Source: Planctomycetales bacterium (GTDB lineage Bacteria; 4484-113; JAFGCY01). Taken from it: a stretch of DNA of 32,000 bases. The translations under genes and the position numbers were made by a program. Below are positions 6,802 through 26,309 of the stretch, piece after piece. The stretch covers positions 1,230,001 to 1,262,000 of the forward strand of contig CP060262.1 in the NCBI GenBank assembly GCA_022646745.1, in the 5' to 3' direction. Each line of letters begins with the position of its first letter. Positions within the stretch are counted from its first letter, which is position 1. The notes beneath the pieces were generated by a model that did no database searches, was not told where the DNA came from, and saw only the letters and a program-made list of their open reading frames with translations.

Positions 6802-6875
6802 GCAAACCCCCAAATCTGCTGAATGCAGTTCAAACCTGGATCACTGATCGCGCGAAGCGCTACTATCCCTCCAAC

Positions 6876-9086
6876 TCATGCCTGCGGGATGTTGCCACGG
6901 ATCGCATAGACCTTCTTCGTGATCCTGTCAGCCACGATCAGCACCGGCTTGTCATTCAGGATCTTCAGGTCCGCGCGTTCGTAGGCATCGATCTCCCCGA
7001 TCTTCATCAGCTGTGTTTCCCATTCACCGTTGCCACGCATCACGGAGCAGTACCAGTCGTGGATCCCGCCGCCCATGTAGACGCAGACCAGGCCGTCGCG
7101 GAAGCGCTCCATCCGGCAGCCCTTGCCGGTCTTGTAGTCCTCGCTGTCGGTGACAAGGTATTGGTCCCAGTATTCATTTCCCTTGTCCTCCATCAGCACC
7201 AGGTTGCGGTTGTAACCGTCGTAGGCAATGATTCCCCAGTGGTCCCCGAGCCATTCCATGTCGCTGTACTGCAGGCCGTAGCTCCAGCCCTCCGGGTTGT
7301 CAGTGACCTGCGTGAACTCGTCGAGGTCCTCGCTCCACAGCAGCAGCTGGCCCGCATCGTAGTCAAATGTGCTGGCGAACAGGCTGCCGTCCCGGGCCTC
7401 GAAGTCCGCCTCACAGGGCCAGCCCTCCGGCAGGCCGAAGAAGTCGTGCTTCTGCCAGGGCTTGTCCTTGCCGAATGGCCGGGTGTACCACTTCTGCCCA
7501 CCACCGTAGAAGTCCACGCCGCTGGCGTTGTAGCCGTTGTCGGAAATGGCAACCTGGCAGAACAGCCCGGCGGCCGGCTGCTGGAAGCCCCCGCCGGTAC
7601 CCTCGTCAATCAGTTCCACATCCCAGCCTACCTCGGGTGCGCCGATCGCGGCATAGTAGTCCAGGCTCTGGGCCGTGACTGATGTGATCAGGTAAGTGCC
7701 GTCGCGGTAGTCAATGTCGAGGTGCTTCTCGAAACCGCCGGCGGAGAAGTATTCGCCGACGTAGTCATTCCAGTACAGGATGCTTTCATCAAGGGCCGTG
7801 CTTTCCACCACCCAGGGTTCGCCCACGCCGTTGTTGCGGGCCACATGCACCACATTGTCAAGGAAATAAGCCGCACAGATCTGGTCGTCCGCGATCACGG
7901 CGGAAATCGGCTCAGTGCCGTCGCCAATCTCCTCCACGTCGTACCATTCCCACTGGTCGCCGGTCAGGCAGGGCAGCGCATCCGTCATGCGGCCCAGCGC
8001 GCCGTTGCTGTCCTTGGCGGCCACGCGCACGAAGTACAGCCGGCCAGGGTCCAGGTTGCTGAACTTGTACTGGCGTGCGCCACCCTGCGGGATGTTCTTC
8101 TTGATGGTCGGCGGCTCGAGGTTGAAGTCCGGCGCGTTGGCAAGGTAGACCACCCAGCTGTTTGGGCTTGGCCCTTCCCAGTCCCAGGCGATTTCAACGT
8201 GGAAGTCCCCGACATCGATGACACGCAAGTTCTGTGGCGCCGGCAGGTCGGCCGCCGGGACATACACGTTCACTGCATTGCTGTAAGCGGATTCGATCGC
8301 GGCAATGGATGTAACGCGGTAGAAGTACATCTCGCCGTTCACCAGCCAGCTGTCCTCATAGCCTGCGCTTGCCAGCGGCTCTTCATTGAGCTTGACCTGG
8401 TCAGCGAACTTGCGGTCGTAGGCGCGATAGACGTTGTAGCCGACGGCATTGTCAACCGGTTGCCAGCTCAGGTGCACGATGCCCGGATCCGCGCTGGCCA
8501 CCAGGTTGGCAGGTGGCTCGAGGTCAGTATCGCCCAGCCTGCCGATTGTCAGCGAATACAGCTTGGCCGCGCCCTCACCGTGACGCAGCACCGTCAAATA
8601 ACAGACGCCGGAGTCGGAGTAGTACTTGCCACCTGCCGGGAACTGGAAACTGAAGTCATCCTTGCCGGCATCGGCGAATACCCAGTGTCCAGTGTTGAAA
8701 TCAGCCACCGCCAGGTAGATGTGGCAGGCTTCGTCCGGGTCGGTGTAAAACGAGGCGAATGCACTGCCGGGAGTGACCTGGCCGAAGCCGCCAAGCGCGT
8801 AGATGCCCCAGGCCGTGTCGCCGCCGTTCAGCTCCAGTGTGGTGCCGACTTCCTCAGCAGTTTCACTCTTTTCCGTCCAGTCGCGGCCCAGCAGCTTGAC
8901 TGAGTCATCACTGATGCTGCGCTCCACGGAATCCGCAAGCACTGACAATGCGGGAAGTGAATCCGCAGCAGCCAGCTGCTGCTGGACTTCCACGGGATCA
9001 GCAGGATCCTGCACGGAGGCGGGTCCCCCGGATCCCGCGCAGGATGCACACAGCAGCGCTGCTGCCAGTATCAGTTTCCTCAACAT
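6876..9086 (-). CDS. large surface lipoprotein, paralog 2 of 4
   Basis: The ORF track gives 6876-9236. The start is placed at the internal Met (9086) of MLRKLILAAALLCASCAGSGG, preceded by the same cttgggggtttgcATG context as paralog 1. Collinear with paralogs 1 and 3. Confidence 0.8.
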   Translation of the reverse strand: MLRKLILAAALLCASCAGSGGPASVQDPADPVEVQQQLAAADSLPALSVLADSVERSISDDSVKLLGRDWTEKSETAEEVGTTLELNGGDTAWGIYALGGFGQVTPGSAFASFYTDPDEACHIYLAVADFNTGHWVFADAGKDDFSFQFPAGGKYYSDSGVCYLTVLRHGEGAAKLYSLTIGRLGDTDLEPPANLVASADPGIVHLSWQPVDNAVGYNVYRAYDRKFADQVKLNEEPLASAGYEDSWLVNGEMYFYRVTSIAAIESAYSNAVNVYVPAADLPAPQNLRVIDVGDFHVEIAWDWEGPSPNSWVVYLANAPDFNLEPPTIKKNIPQGGARQYKFSNLDPGRLYFVRVAAKDSNGALGRMTDALPCLTGDQWEWYDVEEIGDGTEPISAVIADDQICAAYFLDNVVHVARNNGVGEPWVVESTALDESILYWNDYVGEYFSAGGFEKHLDIDYRDGTYLITSVTAQSLDYYAAIGAPEVGWDVELIDEGTGGGFQQPAAGLFCQVAISDNGYNASGVDFYGGGQKWYTRPFGKDKPWQKHDFFGLPEGWPCEADFEARDGSLFASTFDYDAGQLLLWSEDLDEFTQVTDNPEGWSYGLQYSDMEWLGDHWGIIAYDGYNRNLVLMEDKGNEYWDQYLVTDSEDYKTGKGCRMERFRDGLVCVYMGGGIHDWYCSVMRGNGEWETQLMKIGEIDAYERADLKILNDKPVLIVADRITKKVYAIRGNIPQA

Positions 9087-9156
9087 GCAAACCCCCAAGT
9101 CTGCCGGTTGCGTATCCGTCCAGTCTCCAGCCGTGGAAGGCCCAGCCCGGCCATTC

Positions 9157-11382
9157 CTACTCAGGTGGGATGTTGCCACGGATGGCGTAGACCTTCTTCG
9201 TGATCCTGTCAGCCACGATGAACACGGGCTTGTCATCCAGGATCTTCAGGTCGGCGCGCTCATAGGCATCAATCTCACCGATCTTCATCAGCTGCGTTTC
9301 CCATTCGCCGTTGCCACGCAGCACGGAGCAGTACCAGTCCCTGATACCGCCCCCCATGTAGACACAGACCAGCCCGTCGCGGAAAGGTTCCATCCGGCAA
9401 CCCTTGCCGGTCTTGTAGTCATCGGTGTCCGTCACGAGGTACTGGTCCCATGTCGGGTTGCCCTTGTCCTCCAACAGCATCAGGTCGCGGTTGTAGCCAT
9501 CATAGGCGATCAGTCCCCAGTGGTCGCCGAGCCATTCCAGGTCGGTGAACAGCAGTCCGTAGGTCCAGCCCTCCGGGTTGTCAGTGACCTGCGTGAATTC
9601 ATCAAGGTCCTCGGACCAGAGGTAGAGCTCACGATCTATGAAGTCAAAGGAGCTGGCGAACAGGCTGCCACTGCGGACTTCGAAATCCATTTCCGCCGGC
9701 CAGCTTTCCGGGATGGTAAAGAAGTCGTGCTTCTGCCAGGGCTTGTCCTTGCCATAGGGCCTGGTGTACCACTTCAGGCCGCCGCCGTAGAAATCCACGC
9801 CGCTGGCGTTGTAACCGTTGTCAGAGATCGCCACGGAGCAGTAGAGTCCCGCGGTCGGTGCCTGGAACCCCCCGCCGGTGCCCTCATCGATCAGCTCGAC
9901 ATCCCAGCCGGCCTCGGGTGCACCGATTGCTGCGTAGAAGTCGTGGCTCAGTGCGGTGACTGAAGTGATAAGGTAGGTGCCATCCTTGTAGTCAACGTCC
10001 AGGTGCTGCTCGAAGCCCCCAGCGCTGATTTCCTTGCCAACGTAACTGTTCCAGTAGGTGATGCTCTTGTCGAGGTCGGTGCCCTCCACTACCCAGGGCT
10101 CGCCGACGCCGTTGTTGCGCGCCACATGCACGACGTTGTCAAGCATGTATGCGGCGCAGATCTTGTCGTCGGCAATCACGGCGGCAATCGGTTCCTTGCC
10201 GTCGCCGATTTCCTCGATGTCGTACCATTCCCACTGGTCGCCGGTCAGGCAGGGCAGGGCATCCGTCATGCGGCCGAGTGCCCCATTGCTGTCCTTGGCA
10301 GCCAGCCGGACGAAATACAGGCGACCGGGGTCCAGCCCGCTGAACTTGTACTTGCGGGTTCCGCCCTGCGGGATGTTCTTCTTGATGGTCGGCGGCTCGA
10401 GGTTGAAATCCGGCGCGTTGGCCATGTAAACTTCCCAGCCGTTGGGGCTCGGTCCTTCCCAGTCCCAGGCGATCTCGAAGTCGAAGTCACCGACTGACAG
10501 CACTCGTAAATTCTGTGGAGCCGGCAGGTCAGCCGCCGGTACATATACATTCACGGCATTGCTGTAAATGGATTCGATCGCGGCGACGGATGTCACCCGG
10601 TAGAAGTACATCTCACCGCTGACCAGCCAGTCATCCTCGTAGCCAGCTTCCGTGATCGGCTCGGCATTGAGCTTGACCTGGTCAGTGAACTTGCGGTCGT
10701 AGGCCCGGTAGACGTTGTAACCGACGGCATTGCCGACTGCTTGCCAGCCAAGGTGCACGATGCCGGGATCCGCACTGGCCGAGAGGTCCGCCGGGGCCTC
10801 GAGGTTGGTGTCCCCGATGCGACCGATCGTCAGCGAGTACAGCTTGGCATCACCTTCGCCGACGCGCAGCACTGCGATATAGCAGTTGCCTGTCTCCGAA
10901 TGGTACAGGCCATTGGCGGGGAACACGTAACTGAAGTCATCCTTGCCGGCATCCGCGAACACCCAGTGGCCGGTATTGAAATCTGCAACGGCAATGTACA
11001 GCCGGCAGGGGGAATCCTCGTCCGTCCAGAAGCTGGCATAGACACTGCCGGCCTCAACTCCGCCGAAGCCGCCCAGCGCATAGATTCCCCAGGTGTTGTC
11101 CGGGCCATTGAGCTCAAGCGTGGTGCCGATTTCCTCAGCGGTCTCACTCTTGTCAATCCAGTCGCGGCCAAGCAGCTTGATCGAATCGTCGCTCAGGCTG
11201 CGTTCGACGGCGTCCAGGCCATCCGGGAACTGCATTTCCTGCGGTGCAGCAATCTCCGGTCCAGGCTGTAGTGCTGCCAGTGGAGAATTGTCATCCGCCT
11301 GGTTGCCATCCTGCACGACCGCTGTCCGCGAGCCGCAGCTGCACAAAAGCAATGCCAGCATCAGTATGCAAATCCTGCGCAT
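9157..11382 (-). CDS. large surface lipoprotein, paralog 3 of 4
   Basis: The ORF track gives 9157-11454. The start is placed at MRRICILMLALLLCSCGS (11382), preceded by caggaggtacggacATG. Collinear with paralog 2, with most residues identical by eye. Confidence 0.8.
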   Translation of the reverse strand: MRRICILMLALLLCSCGSRTAVVQDGNQADDNSPLAALQPGPEIAAPQEMQFPDGLDAVERSLSDDSIKLLGRDWIDKSETAEEIGTTLELNGPDNTWGIYALGGFGGVEAGSVYASFWTDEDSPCRLYIAVADFNTGHWVFADAGKDDFSYVFPANGLYHSETGNCYIAVLRVGEGDAKLYSLTIGRIGDTNLEAPADLSASADPGIVHLGWQAVGNAVGYNVYRAYDRKFTDQVKLNAEPITEAGYEDDWLVSGEMYFYRVTSVAAIESIYSNAVNVYVPAADLPAPQNLRVLSVGDFDFEIAWDWEGPSPNGWEVYMANAPDFNLEPPTIKKNIPQGGTRKYKFSGLDPGRLYFVRLAAKDSNGALGRMTDALPCLTGDQWEWYDIEEIGDGKEPIAAVIADDKICAAYMLDNVVHVARNNGVGEPWVVEGTDLDKSITYWNSYVGKEISAGGFEQHLDVDYKDGTYLITSVTALSHDFYAAIGAPEAGWDVELIDEGTGGGFQAPTAGLYCSVAISDNGYNASGVDFYGGGLKWYTRPYGKDKPWQKHDFFTIPESWPAEMDFEVRSGSLFASSFDFIDRELYLWSEDLDEFTQVTDNPEGWTYGLLFTDLEWLGDHWGLIAYDGYNRDLMLLEDKGNPTWDQYLVTDTDDYKTGKGCRMEPFRDGLVCVYMGGGIRDWYCSVLRGNGEWETQLMKIGEIDAYERADLKILDDKPVFIVADRITKKVYAIRGNIPPE

Positions 11383-11490
11383 GTCCGTACCTCCTGCGCC
11401 GCCCGCAAGCCTGGCAGGCGCCTGTCCCGGAGGCATCCTGCCTCCAACTTCCATTCCCTGGATCCGCGGATCCTCCAGCCGGTTTATTCC

Positions 11491-13704
11491 CTACAGCTCT
11501 CCGAATGGCGGGATCACTCCCGTCACGCACATGATCTTGTCCTTGTTGGGGGATGTGCTCTCGGTCTCCTCCACGAGGAAGTAGGGCACATCGTTGACGA
11601 CGACCAGCTCGGCACCGGTGGCGGGCTTGACGATCGGCATCAGCATCACCTGCTGGAACCACTGGCTGCCGTCATAAACCGAGCAGTACCAGTTGGTGCT
11701 GTCATCAAGGTAGACGCAGATCAGGCCAGTGCCGCGGAAGGGCTCAAGCCTGGCGTGCCCGCCATATCCGCCTGTTGCCAGGTCCTCGGAGTTCCAGCTG
11801 CCGCCGGACTGGCGCAGCAGGTAGAGGTCATCGTTCGTCACATCGTAGCTGGTGCTGACCCAGCCGCCCGGTGTCATCACCAGGTCGGTGTACAGGCCAT
11901 TGTTGTCACCCATGTTGTCGGAGATCACGGCGGGGGCATACGGAGCCGGGCCCTTGCCGAACAGCAGTTCATGGATCTCATAGTCGAAGTACATGTATTC
12001 TGGATTGTTGCCATTCGCCTTCATCTCGAGCTGCACCGGGAAGCCGCTGTCGTTCAGTGTGCGGACGCTGGTACTGGTCCAGCTGCCCCCGGCGATCGGC
12101 TTCTCACGCATGTAGGTCAGCTTGGCGTAGTAGTCCTTGTCGATGATGTAGTAGCTGTCGTCCGTGATTGCCACCGACAGGTGGTTGCCTGCGCTCGGCA
12201 CGTCGAACTGGCCGACCTTCGTGCCGTCCGCAACGAACTCCTTGGTCCAGCCATTGCCCGGGTCGCCATAACTGGCATACAGGTCCTGGTTGAGGAAGTC
12301 AAATGCACCAACCAGGAACTTACCGTTGCGCTCGGAGATGTCCAGGTAGTTGTCAAAGCTCTCTGTGCCGAACTCCAGCCCGCAGTCGCCAACTGACCAG
12401 CTGCTGCCGGTGCCCTGGGCGAAGGCTACACTGCCCGACGGGGTGCCACCAGCATTCGCACCGAGCCAGATGACACTGGCCGTGTTGCCGGTGGCCACTG
12501 CGCGGATCGGCTCGGAGCCGTTGCCAATCGGGTGCACCTGGGTCCAGTCCCAGAACTCACCGGTGATCGCCGGCAGGTCATCCGTCATCCGGCCGCGGGA
12601 GTTGTTCAGGCTGACGCCGACAATGCGGAAGTAGTACAGCGTGTTGGTCTGCAGGTTGTTGAACTGCGCACTGCGGGCCCAGCTCTGGGAGCGGTAGCGG
12701 ATCTCGATCTCTGGTTCGAGGTTGAAGTCCTTCTCGGCCTTCAGGTAGACATAGAATCCGTTGGCAGGCTCAGGTCCGAGTTCCTCGATGTTCCAGTCCC
12801 AGCCAATCGTGACTGAATCAGGCGTCGCTTCGTCAACACGCGGGTTCTGCGGCGCCGGCATGTCGATCGTCGGTGCGAACAGGTCGATGTAGTCACTCGG
12901 GCCGGATTCCGTTGCGCCGACTGCTGTGACGAAGAAGTAGTAGATAACGCCCTTGAGGATCGGGGTGTAATCGAAGTCCGGGCCTGTCACTGGCTCTGTG
13001 TTCAGCTTCAGCGGGTCACGCAGGTCCGACCAGCGGGAGAAGTAGACGTTGTAGCTCTGAGCACCGGGCACCGGGTCCCACTGCAGGCCGATGTTCTCGG
13101 GAGTCTGCTCGTCACTGCGCAGGTTCTTCGGAGCAGTGATGGTCACATCGCCGACTCGGTTGAAGGTCAGCTTCTGCACGTCTATCGTAGCCGGACCGGT
13201 ACGCAGCAGTGCAATGTGCACGTTGCCGTTCGGGCTGGCGTAATGTGCTGGAGTAACCGGTGTGAAGGTATAGCTTCCATTCTCAGTGGTGCTGAACCAT
13301 TCCCAGCGGCCCTTGTTGTAGTTGGCCATGCCGATGTACAGCACAGTGCCGGCCCCGGTCAGGATGTTGTATTCAGCCTTGATGGAACCGAGGTCCAGTG
13401 TGTCGAAGCTGCTCAGGCTGTAGATCGCCCAGGGGGCCGTGCCATCATTGAGCTTGCAGACCGTGGAGACTGCATGCGCGCCTCCACCGGCTGAGCTGAA
13501 CTCATTGCCCAGCAGCTCGATTGAGTCATCACTGGCCTTGCGGAAGTTGTCCGCCGGTGGCCAGCTGAGGTCTCCCGCTTCGGCCGGCAGGATGTCCACA
13601 GTGCCTGTATCACCTACCCTTGGATCGCCTGAGCCGCAGGAGACAAGCGCGAGTGCAAGTGTGACAAGCATCACGAAGCGACAGTTCTGGAGCAGAATCT
13701 TCAT
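11491..13704 (-). CDS. large surface lipoprotein, divergent paralog 4 of 4
   Basis: 737 aa. The signal is MKILLQNCRFVMLVTLALALVSCGSG (canonical lipobox LVSC), with SD aaagga 6 nt upstream. It has the same module order as the other three, with an FN3-like LQWDPVPGAQSYNVYF...YYFFVTA, but a much more diverged sequence. Confidence 0.8.
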   Translation of the reverse strand: MKILLQNCRFVMLVTLALALVSCGSGDPRVGDTGTVDILPAEAGDLSWPPADNFRKASDDSIELLGNEFSSAGGGAHAVSTVCKLNDGTAPWAIYSLSSFDTLDLGSIKAEYNILTGAGTVLYIGMANYNKGRWEWFSTTENGSYTFTPVTPAHYASPNGNVHIALLRTGPATIDVQKLTFNRVGDVTITAPKNLRSDEQTPENIGLQWDPVPGAQSYNVYFSRWSDLRDPLKLNTEPVTGPDFDYTPILKGVIYYFFVTAVGATESGPSDYIDLFAPTIDMPAPQNPRVDEATPDSVTIGWDWNIEELGPEPANGFYVYLKAEKDFNLEPEIEIRYRSQSWARSAQFNNLQTNTLYYFRIVGVSLNNSRGRMTDDLPAITGEFWDWTQVHPIGNGSEPIRAVATGNTASVIWLGANAGGTPSGSVAFAQGTGSSWSVGDCGLEFGTESFDNYLDISERNGKFLVGAFDFLNQDLYASYGDPGNGWTKEFVADGTKVGQFDVPSAGNHLSVAITDDSYYIIDKDYYAKLTYMREKPIAGGSWTSTSVRTLNDSGFPVQLEMKANGNNPEYMYFDYEIHELLFGKGPAPYAPAVISDNMGDNNGLYTDLVMTPGGWVSTSYDVTNDDLYLLRQSGGSWNSEDLATGGYGGHARLEPFRGTGLICVYLDDSTNWYCSVYDGSQWFQQVMLMPIVKPATGAELVVVNDVPYFLVEETESTSPNKDKIMCVTGVIPPFGEL

Positions 13705-13748: not shown

Positions 13749-13822
13749 TGGGGAATCGTCTAACGGTAGGACGCCTGACTCTGGATCAGGTAGTCTAGGT
13801 TCGAATCCTAGTTCCCCAGCCA
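13749..13822 (+). tRNA. tRNA-Gln (anticodon CUG), CCA encoded
   Basis: Hand-folded 74-nt cloverleaf. Acceptor stem TGGGGAA/TTCCCCA; anticodon stem CCTGA/TCAGG; loop CTCTGGA (anticodon CTG); T-arm CTAGG-TTCGAAT-CCTAG; discriminator G plus CCA. Confidence 0.9.
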
Positions 13823-14006: not shown

Positions 14007-14639
14007 ATGGATTTGCAGATCAATTCAGCTGCCCGCAGGCAGGATCGTCGCCGGATGGTGCTGGACACGGCTGTGCTGATGATTGAGGAATCCGGTTTCC
14101 AGGGGCTTTCCCTGCGCAAGCTGGCCCAGAAGGTTGATTCAACCACACAGCTTGTTTACACCCTGTTCGGCGGCAAGCTAGGCCTGTTCCAGGAGCTGTA
14201 CCGCGATGGCTACCGGATCATGACGGAGATGTTTCAGGCGGCACCCAAATCGCAGAACAGCCTGATGTACCTTAGTACGCTTTGCTGGAAGTACCGCGAA
14301 TTCGCATTGAACCATCCGGTGCTGTTCTCGCTGATGTTCAGCCGCCCCGTGCCGGAGTTCATCCCGCCGGATGTCGGCCTGCTGCGCCAGCAGGAGCCGG
14401 TGCGGATCATGCTGGAGGCTGTCCGCACGGCACAGCGGGGAGGTATGTTCCAGGGGATCACCGCCGAGCATGCCGTTGAGCACTTGCTGTTGACGGTGCA
14501 TGGCGCAGTGCAGATGGAACTCGGAGGCTTCTACGGTGACCAGATGGAAGCCAGTGAAAGCTTCGGCCGTGCCCTGCGGATTGTGGCCAATGGAATGAAC
14601 GCGTCCAGTCCGGCAAGCACACGGCGAGCCAACAGCTGA
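14007..14639 (+). CDS. TetR/AcrR-family transcriptional regulator
   Basis: 210 aa. The N-terminal HTH region, RRMVLDTAVLMIEESGFQGLSLRKLAQKVDSTTQLVYTLFGGK, is typical TetR_N. Confidence 0.85.
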   Translation: MDLQINSAARRQDRRRMVLDTAVLMIEESGFQGLSLRKLAQKVDSTTQLVYTLFGGKLGLFQELYRDGYRIMTEMFQAAPKSQNSLMYLSTLCWKYREFALNHPVLFSLMFSRPVPEFIPPDVGLLRQQEPVRIMLEAVRTAQRGGMFQGITAEHAVEHLLLTVHGAVQMELGGFYGDQMEASESFGRALRIVANGMNASSPASTRRANS

Positions 14640-18588: not shown

Positions 18589-18734
18589 GACTCACTCCAA
18601 ATCATTTCCAGTAGAGGAACCGATTGATGCCTGCCGGTGCAGTGGCGACAGGATGGATTTCGCCTAGGAATGTTTTGGAAAAAAGATCAATCATTTAGTT
18701 TACTCCTGCTTTCCCTGGAATATTTATTCAAAAT

Positions 18735-18763
18735 TTGAATTTTTGGCGGAAGCACCCTAGAAT
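18735..18763 (+). promoter_or_regulatory. near-consensus sigma70-type promoter TTGAAT-N17-TAGAAT upstream of the tripled cassette
   Basis: TTGAAT at 18735-18740, a 17-nt spacer, then TAGAAT at 18758-18763, within an AT-rich stretch. It implies a leader of roughly 87 nt before the ATG at 18857. Confidence 0.55.
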
Positions 18764-18856
18764 CTGCATAGGAGCAAAACCTTGCGCTCCCCTCGTGATT
18801 CATCCCCGCATTCCCTTTCGCGCGGATGAACACGGACATAGATCGGAGGAAGAACA

Positions 18857-19195
18857 ATGAATCGCATCAGCATCGTTATCGCTGCCATTGCCATGATGGC
18901 CCTCGCTGCCTGTTCCAGTACAGCAGGCAATGACATGATTTCAGACAGCATGCAGCAGAAGGACGCAAGCAGCGTGTCACTGACCCTGGTCTGGAATGCA
19001 AATGCCACGCTGTGCAACTTCAAGCTGGCTGACTACGATGCCACGCTCGGCGAGCTGTACAAGGGCACTGACTTCGACGCCGACATGGATCGCATGGAGG
19101 AAGCCATCGCCTTTGAACTCAGCCTCAATCGCAATGACATCCAGGGTGAGTCCACCATGGGATTCGTCCACTTCGACGATGAAGTCGTCGACTGA
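18857..19195 (+). CDS. small lipoprotein, cassette module 1 (112 aa)
   Basis: SD ggagga 6 nt upstream. Signal plus lipobox MNRISIVIAAIAMMALAAC. The C-terminus STMGFVHFDDEVVD is shared with the two downstream copies. Confidence 0.8.
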   Translation: MNRISIVIAAIAMMALAACSSTAGNDMISDSMQQKDASSVSLTLVWNANATLCNFKLADYDATLGELYKGTDFDADMDRMEEAIAFELSLNRNDIQGESTMGFVHFDDEVVD

Positions 19196-19242
19196 GCCGG
19201 CAGGCACTGGTATCCAATTCACCAACTAACAAAGGAAAAAAA

Positions 19243-19374
19243 ATGAGCAACAACCACTTCGACATCAACCAGCAGACCATCAACCTTCCGGCTGGCGCAC
19301 ACGGCGTGCTCAGCACCTGCCTGACCGACAGCAGCCCGGACTATGTGTGGTTCGACTGCGAAGCCGAACTCTAG
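19243..19374 (+). CDS. 43-aa peptide, cassette module 1 (absent from the ORF track, below its length cutoff)
   Basis: My translation is MSNNHFDINQQTINLPAGAHGVLSTCLTDSSPDYVWFDCEAEL. SD aaagga lies upstream. The 29 C-terminal codons differ from copy 2 only by synonymous changes. Confidence 0.8.
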   Translation: MSNNHFDINQQTINLPAGAHGVLSTCLTDSSPDYVWFDCEAEL

Positions 19375-19441
19375 GAACGTGACAAACCTTCCGCGCTGAG
19401 CGGAATCGCCATCCAACCCAGTTACAAGAGAGGAATACACA

Positions 19442-19633
19442 ATGAAGAAGATCAGCATCACCATCGCCACCATCGCCCTGTTCGCGCTCTGCTCCTGCTC
19501 CGGCCAGGGATCCACCGACATGCTTGGTGAAAGCAACACCGAATACGGCAATCCGAGCCTTGGCCAGGATGCTTCCGTGGACTTCCGCGACACCAGCGGC
19601 TTCGTGCACTTTGATGATGAGACGGTCGACTAG
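19442..19633 (+). CDS. small lipoprotein, cassette module 2 (63 aa, internally shortened variant)
   Basis: SD agagagga. Signal MKKISITIATIALFALCSC. It keeps the C-terminal GFVHFDDETVD but lacks the central WNAN...DF..DM...E.AIA block found in modules 1 and 3. Confidence 0.7.
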   Translation: MKKISITIATIALFALCSCSGQGSTDMLGESNTEYGNPSLGQDASVDFRDTSGFVHFDDETVD

Positions 19634-19672
19634 ACCTGCAAGTAATCCACCACCTACTGCGAGGAAAGAACA

Positions 19673-19804
19673 ATGAGCAACATCAACAACGACAGCAACA
19701 TCCAGAGCATCAGCCTCCCCGCCGGTGCCCATGGTGTCCTGAGCACCTGCCTGACTGACAGCAGCCCGGACTACGTATGGTTCGACTGCGAGGCTGAGCT
19801 CTAG
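19673..19804 (+). CDS. 43-aa peptide, cassette module 2 (absent from the ORF track)
   Basis: My translation is MSNINNDSNIQSISLPAGAHGVLSTCLTDSSPDYVWFDCEAEL. SD gaggaaag lies upstream. Confidence 0.8.
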   Translation: MSNINNDSNIQSISLPAGAHGVLSTCLTDSSPDYVWFDCEAEL

Positions 19805-19873
19805 GAACCACCTGCACCTGTCCGGGATTACCGGGCTGGACCAGACCGAAAGATACATCCAAGGAGAAATAAA

Positions 19874-20203
19874 ATGAACAAGATCAACACCCTCATCGCC
19901 ATCGTCGCCCTCAGCATCCTCTGCTCCTGCTCCGGCCAGTCCACCAGCGACATGCTTGCCGAGCGCAACACCGCAGATGTGACCTCCGTGATCGACGGCT
20001 GGAATGCCAACTGCGCCACCTACAACTTCGGCCCGGCTTACTCCGATGAGACCCTTGGCGACATCTACTACGGCTCTGACTTCGAGACCGACATGAACGG
20101 CATCGAGCAGGCGATCGCAGACTACTACGGCATCTCCCGCGACAACGTGGATGGCACCTCCACCATGGGTTTCGTGCACTTCGATGATGAGACGGTGGAC
20201 TAA
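19874..20203 (+). CDS. small lipoprotein, cassette module 3 (109 aa)
   Basis: SD aaggag. Signal MNKINTLIAIVALSILCSC. Collinear with module 1 (WNANCATYNF, GSDFETDM, IEQAIA). The C-terminus is STMGFVHFDDETVD. Confidence 0.8.
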   Translation: MNKINTLIAIVALSILCSCSGQSTSDMLAERNTADVTSVIDGWNANCATYNFGPAYSDETLGDIYYGSDFETDMNGIEQAIADYYGISRDNVDGTSTMGFVHFDDETVD

Positions 20204-20264
20204 ACAGTAACCAGGCAATTCCTGTCTGAATACTGAACACCTGAACACCCAAGAGGAAAGAGAA

Positions 20265-20396
20265 ATGGAAAAGAACAACATCGAGATCGAGCAGCCGACG
20301 GCAAGCCTCCCCGCAGGAGCGCATGGCATCCTCAGCACACGCCTGACGGATGAGAGCCCGGATTACGTCTGGTTCGACTGCGAAGCCGAGCTGTAG
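20265..20396 (+). CDS. 43-aa peptide, cassette module 3 (absent from the ORF track)
   Basis: My translation is MEKNNIEIEQPTASLPAGAHGILSTRLTDESPDYVWFDCEAEL. SD agaggaaag lies upstream. Confidence 0.8.
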   Translation: MEKNNIEIEQPTASLPAGAHGILSTRLTDESPDYVWFDCEAEL

Positions 20397-20641: not shown

Positions 20642-21460
20642 TCAGGCGGTCAGGGTGTTGACTGAGTTGCCACCGCCGAATTCGGGGTTGCGGAAATGGC
20701 GCTTCAATACATCCATCAGGCTTTCACCGTTGTCATCAGTGATCTGCTTGATGCGCTGCTCGAAGCTCTGCTCCACATCCTCGTCGACGATTCCCAGTTG
20801 CAGTGAGGGCTGCCAGATATCCTTCTGGATGTACTTGATGTGTTCAGCGAACTCGGCATTATCCATCACCCACAGCAGGTCTTCCTTGTTGAAGAGCCGC
20901 TGCACGATGCGCATCAGGGCATAGGCCCGGACCCAGTTCCAGTTGGCATGCAGGCCGCGGGCGTTGTTGATCGCGAAGTCGTAGGACTTGATCAGGTACT
21001 GCTCATTGCCCAGCTTGTAGGCCCAGCTGGTGATCTTGTTCCACAGCTCGGAGGTCTGCATGTCCAATGGAATCACGCTCAGCAGGCGGTCCATCGTGGT
21101 CTGGTCCAGCGGCAGGAACTCCAGGCGGTCCATCGTGATCCTGAGCTGGAGGTATAGCCGGCGGCGCAGCATCTCGGCACTCTCGAAGCTGCTTTCCTGC
21201 TCGAGGCGGTTGAGGATTCCCGGCAGGTACTTCATCGCCCAGCCCTCCTCACGCTGCACCAGCCTTACCTGGTACTCCAGGTAGGTCAGCTGGTAAAAGA
21301 AGCGAGAGTTCTCTTCCTCTGGGAACATGACGGCTTCATGGGCTTTCCATGCTTCCTGCATGCGCTGCTCCTGAAGCTTCGTATCACGCGCGTACAGGGC
21401 GTGCACGATCGGCTCACAGAAGTCCACGAACCACTTTTCCTTGGATAGGTCTAGCGTCAT
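20642..21460 (-). CDS. hypothetical cytoplasmic protein with no signal peptide
   Basis: The ORF track gives 20642-21565. I prefer the internal Met (MTLDLSKEKWF...), which is preceded by TATAAT (21476-21471) and aagg. The region 21461-21565 is AT-rich and looks non-coding. No family recognised. Confidence 0.55.
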   Translation of the reverse strand: MTLDLSKEKWFVDFCEPIVHALYARDTKLQEQRMQEAWKAHEAVMFPEEENSRFFYQLTYLEYQVRLVQREEGWAMKYLPGILNRLEQESSFESAEMLRRRLYLQLRITMDRLEFLPLDQTTMDRLLSVIPLDMQTSELWNKITSWAYKLGNEQYLIKSYDFAINNARGLHANWNWVRAYALMRIVQRLFNKEDLLWVMDNAEFAEHIKYIQKDIWQPSLQLGIVDEDVEQSFEQRIKQITDDNGESLMDVLKRHFRNPEFGGGNSVNTLTA

Positions 21461-23144: not shown

Positions 23145-24890
23145 ATGAGCAGATTCGCAATGATGCTGGCCGTGCTGGCGCTGCTGCCCGCGATGGCCCT
23201 TGCCAACGGCTACGACACCTACAGTGCACCGATCGCCTGGAGCCCGGACAGCCACGAGCTGTGCGTGGTGCAGGGCTACGACTGGCCCCAGCCGCAGGTT
23301 GCCAACGAAGGCAGCGTGCTGGTGTATGACCAGTACGGTCGGATCCAGTACGACCTCGGGACCTGGGATGCAGGCTCGCCGGCCTACAGCCCGGATGGGA
23401 AGTACCTCGCAGTGATTGCCAACGGACAGGCGCAGCTCTTCCTGCGCGACGGCTATGAGCCGCTTGCGCCGGTGGACCTCGAGGGCAGCGGGCTGGACCT
23501 GGCCTTCGTCGGCCAGCCGGGTGAGTACGAGCTGGCCTACAGTGTCGGGCCGCGCTTCTACGGGGCCAGCCTCGTGATCCAGCAGCCGGAGGGTGGCAAC
23601 GAGACCGAACTGCCAAAGCCCCTGCCCGGTGACAGCGCGATCAGCCTGCGGATGTGCCCGACGGACTGGCGGATGGCCTTCCTGCTGCAGAGCACGGCGG
23701 ACAACGGCCCGGCCTACGAGCGGATCTACGGTTTCGATGACAACGGCGAACCCTACCAGCTGACGAGGCCGCAGTTGCGCCCTGATGACTACCACGAAAG
23801 CAACATCTGCTTCATGCCCGATGGCAGCCTGCTGTTCCAGCGCGGCGGCTGGGGGGACTGGCACATCTTCCGGCTCGATCCGGCCAGCGGACGCGAGACC
23901 CTCGTTGTCCCGGATGCGCAGCAGCCCAGCGTCAGTGCGGACGGAAGGCTGATTGCGTTCACGCGGCGCAGCTATGCAGATAAGCAGAAGGTCGAATACG
24001 ACTGGGAGATCCCGCCCGGGGTCTGGGTGCGTGACCTGGCAACCGGCCAGGAGTGGCGCATCAGTGACAACGAGAATGAGGCGGAGCATCCGGTGATCTC
24101 ACCGGACGGGCGCAAGCTGGCCTGGCTGCAGCGCATGGAGACTGAGCCGCGCCTGATGGTGCGCAGCGTGATCGGCTTCACCGGCGTGCTCGAGAAGCTG
24201 GAGCAGGATGCCGATGACGACACGGTAATGTATGAAGACATCCAGATGGACGAGCCGCTGATTGACGACGAGCAGGACCCGGAACTGGGCGGGATTGACA
24301 GCACGGCTGAACACCTGTCCCCCAAGGCAATGGAGATCAGCTACGTCAAGTTCGAATGCACGAATGGCGACATCATCTTCGCCGTGCACCATGAGTGGAA
24401 CCCGCTGGCGGCGGAGCGCTTCATCACGCTTGTCAACAGCGGCTACTACGACGGCGCACCCTGGTTCCGGGTGATTGACGGTTTCGTGGCCCAGTGTGGC
24501 ATCAGTGCGGACCCGCGCATGAATGCGGAATGGGACGAGGCGACCTTCCCGGATGAGGAGGTGCTGGTTGGCAACACCCGCGGGATGGTGGCCTACGGCA
24601 AGACAGGCGACCCGGATTCGCGCACCACGCATATCTACATCAACTATGGCGACAACTCACGGCTGGACGAGAAGGGCTTCAGCGCATTCGCTGAGGTCTG
24701 GCAGGGAATGGACGTGGCCGACTCGCTGTTCCGCTGCGAGTATGACGACCAGGAAGGGTTGGCGGCGGAGGGCGGCCTGGCCAAATTCCGTGAGATGTTC
24801 CCCGAGGCGGATTTCATTGAGCTGGCCTATGTGATGGAGGGCGATCCACCGGCCTACCAGCCTGTGCTGGAGCCGGAATCGATGGAATAA
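23145..24890 (+). CDS. exported fusion protein: TolB-like (PD40) beta-propeller plus C-terminal cyclophilin-type peptidyl-prolyl isomerase
   Basis: Signal MSRFAMMLAVLALLPAMALA. PD40-like repeats: SPDGKYLAV, MPDGSLLF, SADGRLIAFT, SPDGRKLAW. The C-terminal ~170 aa match the cyclophilin signature (NPLAAERFITLVNSGYYDGAPWFRVIDGFVAQCG ... RGMVAYGKTGDPDSRTTHIYINYGDNSRLD ... FAEVWQGMDV). Confidence 0.8.
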   Translation: MSRFAMMLAVLALLPAMALANGYDTYSAPIAWSPDSHELCVVQGYDWPQPQVANEGSVLVYDQYGRIQYDLGTWDAGSPAYSPDGKYLAVIANGQAQLFLRDGYEPLAPVDLEGSGLDLAFVGQPGEYELAYSVGPRFYGASLVIQQPEGGNETELPKPLPGDSAISLRMCPTDWRMAFLLQSTADNGPAYERIYGFDDNGEPYQLTRPQLRPDDYHESNICFMPDGSLLFQRGGWGDWHIFRLDPASGRETLVVPDAQQPSVSADGRLIAFTRRSYADKQKVEYDWEIPPGVWVRDLATGQEWRISDNENEAEHPVISPDGRKLAWLQRMETEPRLMVRSVIGFTGVLEKLEQDADDDTVMYEDIQMDEPLIDDEQDPELGGIDSTAEHLSPKAMEISYVKFECTNGDIIFAVHHEWNPLAAERFITLVNSGYYDGAPWFRVIDGFVAQCGISADPRMNAEWDEATFPDEEVLVGNTRGMVAYGKTGDPDSRTTHIYINYGDNSRLDEKGFSAFAEVWQGMDVADSLFRCEYDDQEGLAAEGGLAKFREMFPEADFIELAYVMEGDPPAYQPVLEPESME

Positions 24891-24957: not shown

Positions 24958-24986
24958 TTGTCGCTCCATGGCTCGCATTGTATAAT
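24958..24986 (+). promoter_or_regulatory. sigma70-type promoter TTGTCG-N17-TATAAT for the first Cys-repeat gene
   Basis: TTGTCG at 24958-24963, a 17-nt spacer, then TATAAT at 24981-24986. SD ggag lies 7 nt before the ATG at 25021. Confidence 0.5.
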
Positions 24987-25020
24987 TTTCGACACCTATT
25001 ACGAATCAGCGGAGCAACTG

Positions 25021-25716
25021 ATGAGGAAAGTGATCTTCGCCGCGATGATCGTGGCGGCACTGACGGTATTTGCAGGGGGCACTTCCACAGCCTGGGCAGG
25101 TTGTGGCTGCAAGGATAAGTGCGGATGCTCCCAGAAGGCTGACTGCGGCTGCAAGGACAAGTGTGGCTGTGAGAAGCCGAAGTGCGGCAAGTGCGAAAGC
25201 AAGTGTGGCTGCGAGAAGCCCAAGTGCAACAAGTGCGAGAGCAAGTGCGGCTGCAGCAAGCCCAAGTGCAACAAATGCGAGAACAAGTGCGGCTGTGAGT
25301 CCAAGTCCAAGTGCGGTTGCTCCAGCGGCTGTGACTGCTGCGTCCAGAAGGTCGCGCAGAACCACCATCCCTACGAATGCCAGTACCGTGGCAGCAGCAT
25401 GGTCTGCGACATGGGCTGCTGCAGCGGCCCGATCTGCATCCCCAAGTGCGAGGTCTGCACGACCACCTGCACCAAGAAGGAATGCACCGACAGCTGCGGC
25501 TGCTCCCATGTGACCTGGGAAAGCCACACCACCTGCGGAGCTCCCGAGCGTCCGCGCACCATCCCCTGGTGGTTCAACATCGAGGCCGGCACCGGCAATA
25601 TCTACCTTGAGGGTGATGAGAAGTGGGAAAGCGCCAGCGAGGAAGGCGGTGAGGAGATGGCTTCCGCCGAGAAGAGCAGCGAAAAGTCTGAAACCGTTGA
25701 GTCCAGCGAAGCTTAA
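25021..25716 (+). CDS. exported cysteine-repeat protein (KCGC repeats, metallothionein-like), acidic C-terminal tail
   Basis: The ORF track gives 24958-25716. The Met at 25021 has an SD and starts the signal MRKVIFAAMIVAALTVFAGGTSTAWA. I count about 37 Cys, 25 of them within an ~81-aa block of the form GCGCKDKCGC...KCGCEKPKC(G/N)KCESKCGC... Confidence 0.75.
   Translation: MRKVIFAAMIVAALTVFAGGTSTAWAGCGCKDKCGCSQKADCGCKDKCGCEKPKCGKCESKCGCEKPKCNKCESKCGCSKPKCNKCENKCGCESKSKCGCSSGCDCCVQKVAQNHHPYECQYRGSSMVCDMGCCSGPICIPKCEVCTTTCTKKECTDSCGCSHVTWESHTTCGAPERPRTIPWWFNIEAGTGNIYLEGDEKWESASEEGGEEMASAEKSSEKSETVESSEA
25159..25284 (+). repeat. in-frame 42-bp tandem repeat x3 (KCGC[ES]KPKC[GN]KCE[SN])
   Basis: Units at 25159-25200, 25201-25242 and 25243-25284, with degenerate Cys-rich units on both sides. 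Confidence 0.8.
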
Positions 25717-25790: not shown

Positions 25791-26309
25791 ATGAAGAAGT
25801 TTGTGATCAGCAGCTTCCTGGCAGCGGTGGCGGTTTTCGCCCTGCTCGGTTCCGCTTCCGCAAGCACTGTTTCCAGCGCGGTTGACAATGCCATCGTGGC
25901 CGTCAACATGCAGGTCGGTGCCGTCAGCTTTGACGTTGCCCACTGTGGCAAGTGCGGCATGGAAGGCGAGCACGCTGCCAAGGCTGACATGAAGATGGAC
26001 CACGGCGCCAACTGCGGCTGTGGCTGCAAGAGCAAGTGCGGCTGCTCCAAGCCCAAGTGTGGCTGTGAGAAGAAGTGCGGTTGCTCCAAGCCCAAGTGCG
26101 GTTGCGAGAAGAAGTGCGGCTGCTCCAAGCCCAAGTGCGGTTGCGAGAAGAAGTGCGGCTGCGAGAAGCCGAAGTGCGGCTGTGAGAAGAAGTGCGGCTG
26201 CAAGGACAAGTGCGAGTGCTGCCCCAAGAAGGTTGAGAACTACCCCGATGCCAACCGTGGCGCCGAGGGTGAGTGGGCCCGCGATGGCCTCAGCCGCCAG
26301 AAGGCGTAG
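25791..26309 (+). CDS. exported cysteine-repeat protein 2 (KCGCSKPKCGCEK repeats, metallothionein-like)
   Basis: SD gggaggg upstream. Signal MKKFVISSFLAAVAVFALLGSASA. 26 Cys in 172 aa. Differences between repeat units fall on third codon positions of this frame. Confidence 0.8.
   Translation: MKKFVISSFLAAVAVFALLGSASASTVSSAVDNAIVAVNMQVGAVSFDVAHCGKCGMEGEHAAKADMKMDHGANCGCGCKSKCGCSKPKCGCEKKCGCSKPKCGCEKKCGCSKPKCGCEKKCGCEKPKCGCEKKCGCKDKCECCPKKVENYPDANRGAEGEWARDGLSRQKA
26034..26222 (+). repeat. in-frame 39-bp tandem repeat, 4 full units plus a partial fifth
   Basis: Units at 26034-26072, 26073-26111, 26112-26150 and 26151-26189, plus a partial unit at 26190-26222. Units 1-3 differ only by ggc/ggt and tgt/tgc synonymous changes. 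Confidence 0.85.

Follow-up and report, generated by a model that had tools for sequence, protein, structure and literature searches.

A Short Motif Shared by Small Lipoproteins and Adjacent Acidic Mini-Proteins, Linked to a Gene for a TPR-Like Protein, in Uncultured Bacteria

The 32,000-nucleotide (nt) stretch of contig CP060262.1 analyzed here (Planctomycetales bacterium, GTDB lineage 4484-113, JAFGCY01; assembly GCA_022646745.1, positions 1,230,001 to 1,262,000), hereafter the window, contains three tandem modules on the forward strand (18857-20396), in each of which a gene for a small predicted lipoprotein is followed by a gene for a 43-amino-acid (aa) acidic peptide. An earlier note on this DNA had described closely similar acidic-aromatic sequences at the ends of both products, and these tails were confirmed in all three modules, the lipoproteins ending in GFVHFDDE[VT]VD-stop and the peptides in DYVWFDCEAEL-stop. 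On the sequence evidence from distant homologs, the shared motif is a real feature of both partners that has been selected at the protein level over deep divergence. Together with a convergent gene for a 272-aa protein whose predicted fold resembles tetratricopeptide repeat (TPR) proteins, the lipoprotein and the mini-protein form what looks like a conserved, undescribed three-gene module without matches to known families. The earlier note took the tails to be a C-terminal tag; that reading should be replaced by one of a near-C-terminal linear motif, present on a lipoprotein tail and on a partner mini-protein and linked to a TPR-like protein.

The motif in close and distant lipoprotein-peptide pairs

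Close homologs of the proteins in the window were very few (12 clusters for the peptides and 4 for the lipoproteins in a set of 5.8 billion proteins) and came from four GTDB species, all metagenome-assembled genomes (MAGs) labeled "UBP7 HKST-UBA01/03," AC1.30, and "Planctomycetales Ww346," with one contig labeled 4484-113; these are referred to here as the UBP7-type clade. An exhaustive hidden Markov model search using the lipoprotein profile against 1.84 billion representatives identified some 28 additional small lipoproteins, 103-142 aa long, which have in common a helical domain with the pattern WNxxCAxxNF...TLGxxYxGxDFxxD and which aligned with the window family at an hhalign probability of 99.4% (E=9e-22). 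Many of these distant lipoproteins end in ...LY[IVG]W[YF]D-acidic-G-D-D (for example, LYIWYDSDGDD), a tail that is nearer to the peptide sequence YVWFDCE than to the local lipoprotein sequence FVHFDDE. All four of the motif-bearing distant loci with readable downstream DNA, including the one true extra locus from a metagenome scan (L020; a further hit, L021, was spurious), encoded a leaderless acidic peptide (42, 42, 43, and 57 aa) that begins 2-22 nt after the lipoprotein stop codon and repeats the tail of the lipoprotein, as in the matched sequences YIWYDSDGDD/HIWYDSLADE and WFDVIGDSV/WFDSLGDCI (Table 1). In each of these four pairs the motif gave the top-scoring local alignment of mature lipoprotein and peptide, and at the family level the distant lipoproteins aligned with all peptides over 13 columns (hhalign P=1.3e-4). 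The earlier note had named homologous pairs lacking the motif in one partner as the observation that would speak against a shared feature; a search for such pairs found instead that the four distant lineages have hydrophobic-W-[YF]-D in both partners. The residue that follows the W or H agrees between the partners in every lineage (Y/Y three times and F/F twice).

Table 1. Paired tails in the four distant loci and shuffling statistics for each match
Locus	Lipoprotein tail	Peptide	Matched stretch (lipoprotein / peptide)	Shuffle p
L013	...PECMYIWYDSDGDDFE	...PGMDHIWYDSLADEITL	PECMYIWYDSDGDD / PGMDHIWYDSLADE	0.004
L014	...LYIWYDDDADDLT	...MDSIWYDSLCD	IWYDDDAD / IWYDSLCD	0.043
L020	...LYVWYDNDADDPW	...VDHIWYDSLGD	YVWYDNDAD / HIWYDSLGD	0.003
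L022	...LYGWFDVIGDSV	...PKFWFDSLGDCIPVPSTPQA	WFDVIGDSV / WFDSLGDCI	<0.001

Three members of the lipoprotein family with other tails (P0042, ending ...DPVWFR; P0025, ending ...FCEFTGDGCVKK, a paralog in the same MAG as locus L004; and P0050, ending ...ILEWPEA) were not followed by a peptide open reading frame. The peptide was thus present in 5/5 motif-bearing lineages and 0/3 motif-less lineages with known context (Fisher's exact p ~0.018, our own calculation).

The UBP7-type clade taken by itself gave a much weaker signal. The strict pattern [FY][VALI][HW]FD[DC]E had no other occurrence when the window and the first seven related loci (~88 kb) were translated in all six frames. Alignment of 12 lipoproteins with 15 peptides of the clade using hhalign joined the expected seven columns (FVHFDDE/YVWFDCE) at a P value that was not significant (P=0.13), and BLASTP produced no alignment between the two families. 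Shuffling of whole proteins gave p=0.3-0.4 and shuffling restricted to the tails p ~0.02-0.03; a fixed-register test gave p=0.0004-0.003 but was post hoc. By these sequence comparisons, the similarity of lipoproteins and peptides is weak on the clade data alone and is clearly nonrandom only once the distant pairs are included.

Codon usage beneath the motif points to the protein as the level of selection. The earlier note had described the codon differences between copies as synonymous, which proved to be mostly but not exclusively the case: the lipoprotein tails contained 261 synonymous and 63 nonsynonymous changes, and the core block of the peptides contained 522 and 178, respectively, with zero nonsynonymous changes inside YVWFDCE. 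There was no excess codon identity between the motifs of partner genes, which argues that the similarity is held at the protein level by long-term selection and is not the product of recent gene conversion. The synonymous drift and the absence of excess codon identity also led to rejection of a DNA or RNA element lying beneath the motif. Across the lineages that retain the match, the lipoprotein domains are only ~25-30% identical and the rest of the peptide has diverged almost completely.

The shared core consists of hydrophobic-[IV]-[WH]-[YF]-D followed by acidic residues, often with G/A-D. In the window and two related genomes the core lies exactly three residues before the stop codon in both families, so that the "same distance from the stop" reported in the earlier note holds there. 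Elsewhere lipoproteins have three or five residues past the core: those of loci L004-L007 are extended by two residues (...VDVL, ...VDVT, or ...IDVE), and one peptide ends in ...AELV. Counted from the D of the motif, 5 or 7 residues remain in the lipoproteins and 4, 4, 5, 6, 8, or 14 in the peptides. Overall, the spacing between motif and stop codon spans 3-5 residues in lipoproteins and 0-14 in peptides. Because the distance to the stop codon varies, the same-distance property is not conserved, and the motif is near the C terminus but not anchored there, which does not fit an extreme C-terminal tag in fixed register. Stalling of the nascent chain at termination is disfavored for the same reason. 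The motif is followed by just 3-7 acidic or small residues, with no hydrophobic stretch or helix and no basic cluster. No sortase, exosortase, rhombosortase, type IX secretion system (T9SS) domain, or ligase gene was detected in the window, and no protease or ligase is encoded near the modules. Among the forms of common recognition event that the earlier note had suggested, a sorting signal and a protease or ligase site are therefore without corresponding features or genes; its proposal of a docking epitope or mimicry is still the one that fits best.

Similarity between partners reaches slightly upstream of the core, with P...D-x-hydrophobic-W-Y-D in the peptides and EP...hydrophobic-Y-hydrophobic-W-Y-D in the lipoproteins; from this extended similarity we infer that the peptide gene probably originated when the 3' end of the lipoprotein gene was copied.

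Further subfamilies of these lipoproteins (P0028, P0032, P0041, P0042, and P0046, and P0026, P0047, P0048, P0050, and P0051) have C-terminal tails of another kind that also contain Trp and are conserved, namely ...DDLLSAV[IL]xDPxW[YF]x and ...ENW/EWP.... Tails with a Trp may therefore characterize the lipoprotein family as a whole, with or without a partner peptide.

Predicted features of the three module proteins

The N termini of the small lipoproteins have a basic n-region, a hydrophobic h-region, and a lipobox (LAAC, LCSC, LSAC, or LASC), and Cys19 is invariant in 12/12 sequences. By the sequence rule L-[ASC]-[AGS]-C, they are classed as bacterial lipoproteins and predicted substrates of Lgt and Lsp. 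The peptides have a pI of ~4 and no hydrophobic segment (maximum 15-residue hydropathy of ~1.0 or less). The pairing of an exported, lipid-anchored protein with a leaderless peptide, as put forward in the earlier note, is consistent with both sets of features. An AlphaFold2 model of lipoprotein 1 contained a helical domain (residues 41-100) with a predicted local distance difference test score (pLDDT) of 83-89 and an unstructured tail (residues 105-112) with a pLDDT of <50; the domain had no structural neighbor in the PDB (Foldseek, all E>2). A short form of the lipoprotein (63-65 aa), present in the window and in locus L006, consists only of a signal peptide, a diverged, fast-evolving linker, and the conserved tail, which marks the motif as the likely functional payload on a membrane tether. 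The peptides begin 2-61 nt past the lipoprotein stop codon (window and distant loci), and their N termini are variable while their C termini are conserved.

Scans of the lipoproteins, peptides, and neighboring proteins against Pfam, NCBIfam, and PADLOC gave nothing significant, and neither the lipoproteins nor the 272-aa protein had a sequence match in the PDB. A marginal match of the peptide profile to the Escherichia coli E2o lipoyl domain (1pmr, E=0.096, over PASADG[IV]L) was taken as chance.

The 272-aa protein encoded convergently to the modules was modeled by AlphaFold2 as an all-alpha solenoid of 13 helices (pLDDT 83.4). It has no signal peptide and no Pfam or NCBIfam match, and no helix-turn-helix (HTH) or phosphatase effector domain was detected in it. 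The nearest PDB folds identified by Foldseek were EMC2, LapB, the AspH TPR domain, MalT domain III, the Craspase TPR protein, and Rap, matches that are generic (E 0.1-1; TM ~0.4) and indicate a fold class, not membership in a family. The protein is lineage restricted (5 clusters), and no match to it was found by tblastn in plasmids and phages. Its gene adjoins the modules in all UBP7-type loci. In the distant locus L014, a partial open reading frame convergent to the module and located after the peptide matches the C-terminal half of the 272-aa protein (25% identity over 121 residues; BLASTP E=2e-20), with a kept segment of Y-[DE]-F-A-[IV]-x-x-A-R-G-x4-W-x-W-x-R. On the contig of P0027, which has a 197-nt gap, a 269-aa gene stands in the position of the TPR-like gene, a match by gene length only. 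The TPR-like gene was absent from the 5-8 kb around motif-less paralogs.

Organization of the locus and neighboring genes

Each gene of the three modules has its own Shine-Dalgarno-like sequence (Table 2). The frame offsets between lipoprotein and peptide in the three modules are 2, 0, and 1, which rules out recoding or read-through that would fuse the two products. The same order is present in all loci of the close homologs: a TetR regulator, a 1246-aa protein with PKD domains, two or three modules, and the convergent 272-aa gene.

Table 2. Features of the module locus, in window coordinates
Feature	Position	Strand	Description
Sigma-70-like promoter	18735-18763	+	TTGAAT-17-TAGAAT; putative promoter of the module operon, from a consensus scan
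Conserved 5' leader	18764-18856	+	~95 nt, two predicted hairpins; RNAalifold, 19 pairs, 3 with compensatory changes, 4 genomes
Lipoprotein 1	18857-19195	+	112 aa; signal peptide, lipobox, small helical domain, and disordered tail GFVHFDDEVVD (open reading frame and AlphaFold)
Motif core of lipoprotein 1	19163-19183	+	FVHFDDE
Peptide 1	19243-19374	+	43 aa, acidic, without signal peptide
Motif core of peptide 1	19342-19362	+	YVWFDCE
Lipoprotein 2, short form	19442-19633	+	63 aa; signal peptide, ~30-residue linker, and tail GFVHFDDETVD; motif core 19601-19621
Peptide 2	19673-19804	+	43 aa; motif core 19772-19792
Lipoprotein 3	19874-20203	+	109 aa; motif core 20171-20191
Peptide 3	20265-20396	+	43 aa; motif core 20364-20384
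TPR-like protein gene	20642-21460	-	272 aa, convergent to the modules; candidate motif reader

The putative promoter lies within a block (18720-18763; GAATATTTATTCAAAATTTGAATTTTT...CACCCTAGAATCT) that is identical in 5 genomes, unlike the diverging sequence on either side. An inverted repeat, TTCAAA-A-TTTGAA, overlaps the promoter and could serve as an operator, with the TetR-family regulator (14007-14639) as one possible binding protein. The 5' leader had no match to an Rfam family.

The 1246-aa protein, encoded directly ahead of the modules in every related genome (14848-18588 in the window), is a probable lipoprotein with five PKD domains, dockerin-like repeats near the N terminus, and a C-terminal region of ~350 aa that is unannotated. 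Farther upstream on the reverse strand (4594-13704) are four tandem paralogs of 737-786 aa, each with one fn3 domain and otherwise unannotated, and a tRNA gene (13749-13819; Rfam RF00005, 64.8 bits) lies between this array and the TetR gene. Beyond the TPR-like gene, the window contains a gene for an exported PD40/TolB-like beta-propeller fused to a cyclophilin-type peptidyl-prolyl isomerase (23145-24890), and genes for two secreted cysteine-rich repeat proteins (24958-25716 and 25791-26309) composed of metallothionein-like CGC[EKS]KPKC units, without a Pfam match and syntenic in related MAGs.

Some members of the lipoprotein family are encoded at a different site. P0025, the motif-less and peptide-less paralog in the MAG of locus L004 (L016, 4001-4348), sits between genes for a 5'-3' exonuclease and a NAGPA-domain protein, and in L020 (1-303) and on the contig of P0027 a peptide-bearing module is located just downstream of a 5'-3' exonuclease gene. 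The presence of a module at this site in distant lineages and of P0025 there in UBP7 suggests that the exonuclease-adjacent site came first and that the multi-module locus of UBP7 arose from it by relocation and expansion.

Candidate roles of the shared motif

The reading that we tentatively favor is that the motif serves for docking, as a short linear element displayed on two carriers, with the peptide and the lipoprotein tail as mimics that share one binding site and the TPR-like solenoid as the most plausible reader. One carrier would be the flexible C-terminal tail of a small lipoprotein exported by Sec and Lsp, and the other would be the leaderless, strongly acidic ~43-aa peptide encoded by the next open reading frame. 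The peptide would correspond to the final 15-25 lipoprotein residues made as a separate product, and by this resemblance the two may be molecular mimics able to fill the same binding site. The reader would be cytoplasmic (the co-conserved 272-aa solenoid), and the peptide would act as a competitor of, or a substitute for, the tail of a lipoprotein that has not yet been exported or has been re-imported. If reader and tail meet before export, the interaction could have a holdase or quality-control role in which the peptide competes; alternatively, they could meet after release and re-import of the tail, as a form of signaling. The data show the sharing of the motif, its selection at the protein level, the strict co-occurrence of motif and peptide gene (in the few lineages sampled), the predicted disorder of the tail, and the linkage of the TPR-like gene; within the docking reading we infer that binding occurs, which protein reads the motif, and what the output is, and the mechanism likewise.

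Several observations weigh against docking on a common reader. The exported tail is extracytoplasmic, in contrast to the apparently cytoplasmic peptide and TPR-like protein, so that a common reader requires an assumed step before export or after re-import. The motifs of the two partners have diverged in UBP7 (H versus W and D versus C), and no compensating covariation between partner motifs was found among close relatives. The W-containing tails of subfamilies without any peptide imply that the tail has some function that is independent of the peptide. Linkage to the TPR-like gene amounts to two sequence-confirmed lineages and one by gene length only, and the Foldseek matches of the 272-aa protein are generic.

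A chance resemblance of two acidic, aromatic-rich tails would be in keeping with the clade taken alone (hhalign P=0.13; whole-sequence shuffling p=0.3-0.4), but the match is found again in four distant pairs, where it is stronger, and is significant at the family level (P=1.3e-4), so this explanation is effectively refuted and is given next to no weight. A tag for sorting, processing, or ligation that is recognized at one set distance from the C terminus, including an effect of the nascent chain at termination, is also very improbable. The constant three residues before the stop codon in the window and two related genomes are what such a tag would predict, but the distance varies elsewhere in both families and one of the two carriers never enters the export pathway. 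The LPXTG, PEP-CTERM, GlyGly-CTERM, and T9SS C-terminal domain (CTD) signals combine a hydrophobic helix and basic residues (or a CTD of 80-100 aa) with a cognate enzyme, and neither a transmembrane helix or basic cluster nor a gene for any of these enzymes was detected here. Common ancestry without a common partner, in which the peptide gene is a duplicated 3' end of the lipoprotein gene and the motif was kept in each for separate reasons such as structure, stability, or translational coupling, is the least improbable of the alternatives, though still rather unlikely. Similarity extending upstream of the core is expected of a partial gene duplicate, and the different W-containing tails of peptide-less subfamilies agree with it as well. 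However, partner motifs have stayed matched across lineages in which the lipoprotein domains have become widely different and little else of the peptide is conserved, independent drift should have erased a match of 7-9 residues, and the peptide is found only where the lipoprotein tail carries the motif.

Two further explanations, each of which we consider unlikely, do give the motif a binding partner. Signaling of the RRNPP or enterococcal pheromone type would make the lipoprotein an exported pro-peptide whose motif is cleaved, re-imported, and sensed by the TPR-like receptor, with the leaderless peptide as an intracellular or separately exported agonist or antagonist competing for the same site. 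The 63-aa lipoprotein, composed of an export signal, a linker, and the motif only, resembles a Phr-type pro-peptide, and a gene for a TPR-like solenoid lies beside the peptide genes, with Rap among its fold matches, though weakly (E ~0.5). The closest logic is that of enterococci, where cCF10, derived from the lipoprotein CcfA, and iCF10, from the small open reading frame prgQ, compete for the receptor PrgX (PMC5552905, PMC7117660); in that system a lipoprotein precursor and a small open reading frame supply similar short sequences to one cytoplasmic receptor. The enterococcal pheromone, however, is a hydrophobic peptide that Lsp and Eep liberate from the C-terminal portion of the signal sequence at the lipoprotein's N terminus, whereas the present motif is acidic-aromatic and lies outside the signal peptide, in the tail at the C terminus of the mature protein. 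The two systems have no sequence homology, an HTH domain is present in PrgX but was not detected in the 272-aa protein, and the present host appears to be an uncultured diderm, given the presence of a FadL-type outer membrane protein. The RRNPP systems (Rap-Phr, NprR-NprX, PlcR-PapR, and AimR-AimP) likewise place a TPR-type cytoplasmic protein beside a gene for a ~40-aa peptide with functional residues near its C terminus. In contrast to those systems, the export signal here belongs to the lipoprotein and not to the peptide, the candidate receptor has no detectable effector domain, where RRNPP receptors carry one at the N terminus (HTH or Rap-type three-helix bundle), and the genes are convergent, not cotranscribed. 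The window encodes neither an Opp-type importer nor a processing protease, and in L022 the motif is not at the extreme C terminus; both observations speak against a signaling role.

Direct pairing would have the copies of the motif bind each other, through a beta-zipper or a Ca2+-bridged acidic-aromatic contact, or would have the peptide replace the tail on the helical domain; in variants of this idea the peptide acts as a cytoplasmic holdase for the pre-lipoprotein or as a ligand in trans that displaces a tail docked in cis. The tight translational coupling in the distant loci (2-22-nt gaps) suggests stoichiometric partners, and the matched Y or F residue in each pair would fit a homotypic contact. 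There is also precedent in the NLR-associated amyloid signaling motifs, which were found through adjacent genes with a common short terminal motif (bioRxiv 10.1101/2020.01.06.895854). The genomic signature is the same, but those motifs (fungal HET-s/NWD2 and bacterial BASS) are ~20-40 residues long, rich in G, N, and Q, and amyloid forming, and they connect the N terminus of an NLR (NB-ARC or NACHT plus repeats) with the C terminus of an effector in one compartment. The present motif, at only 7-13 residues, is highly acidic, C-terminal in both proteins, and not amyloid-like, and NLR domains are absent. Self-association of two strongly acidic motifs is improbable unless cations bridge them, AlphaFold leaves the tail undocked from the domain, the short lipoprotein has no domain to bind, and the mature proteins are in different compartments.

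Two other comparisons bear on the nature of the module. The EEVD tails of Hsp70 and Hsp90, read by TPR carboxylate clamps, resemble the acidic C-terminal tail (...FDDE[VT]VD) with its TPR-like candidate reader; recognition of EEVD, however, needs the free terminal carboxylate, while in the present families the register varies and the aromatic core is conserved rather than the last residues. A precursor of a ribosomally synthesized and post-translationally modified peptide (RiPP), or a bacteriocin with an immunity lipoprotein, was rejected: no modifying enzyme (such as a radical SAM, YcaO, or LanM protein) or peptidase-ABC exporter was found in the 32 kb, in which several neighboring proteins are unannotated, the peptide is acidic, and the pattern of conservation is the reverse of the conserved leader and variable core of RiPP precursors. 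Because each known system compared here differs from the module in a tested defining feature, the module was assigned to no known family.

If a common partner reads the motif, the locus would represent a compact natural case of mimicry across compartments, between a lipoprotein tail and the product of a mini-open reading frame, and would comprise three new protein families, all without a Pfam, NCBIfam, PDB, or PADLOC match. The family is rare (~30 clusters among 1.8 billion representatives) and confined to uncultured lineages, which calls for caution in extending its significance. The sharing of a motif between adjacent genes, the signature behind amyloid signaling pairs, can flag other partner systems, and the present case offers a testable role for conserved small open reading frames of ~43 aa, which are often missed by gene callers. 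In its fullest and so far doubtful form, the docking reading would describe a new peptide-mimicry circuit in an uncultured diderm phylum, in which an exported, lipid-anchored carrier and a leaderless cytoplasmic mini-protein present one motif to a dedicated TPR-like receptor. If this is true, the cell could compare or couple an envelope-derived signal, in the form of a released or not-yet-exported tail, with an intracellular decoy, and the module would be a diderm functional analog of the competition between pheromone and inhibitor, made of unrelated parts.

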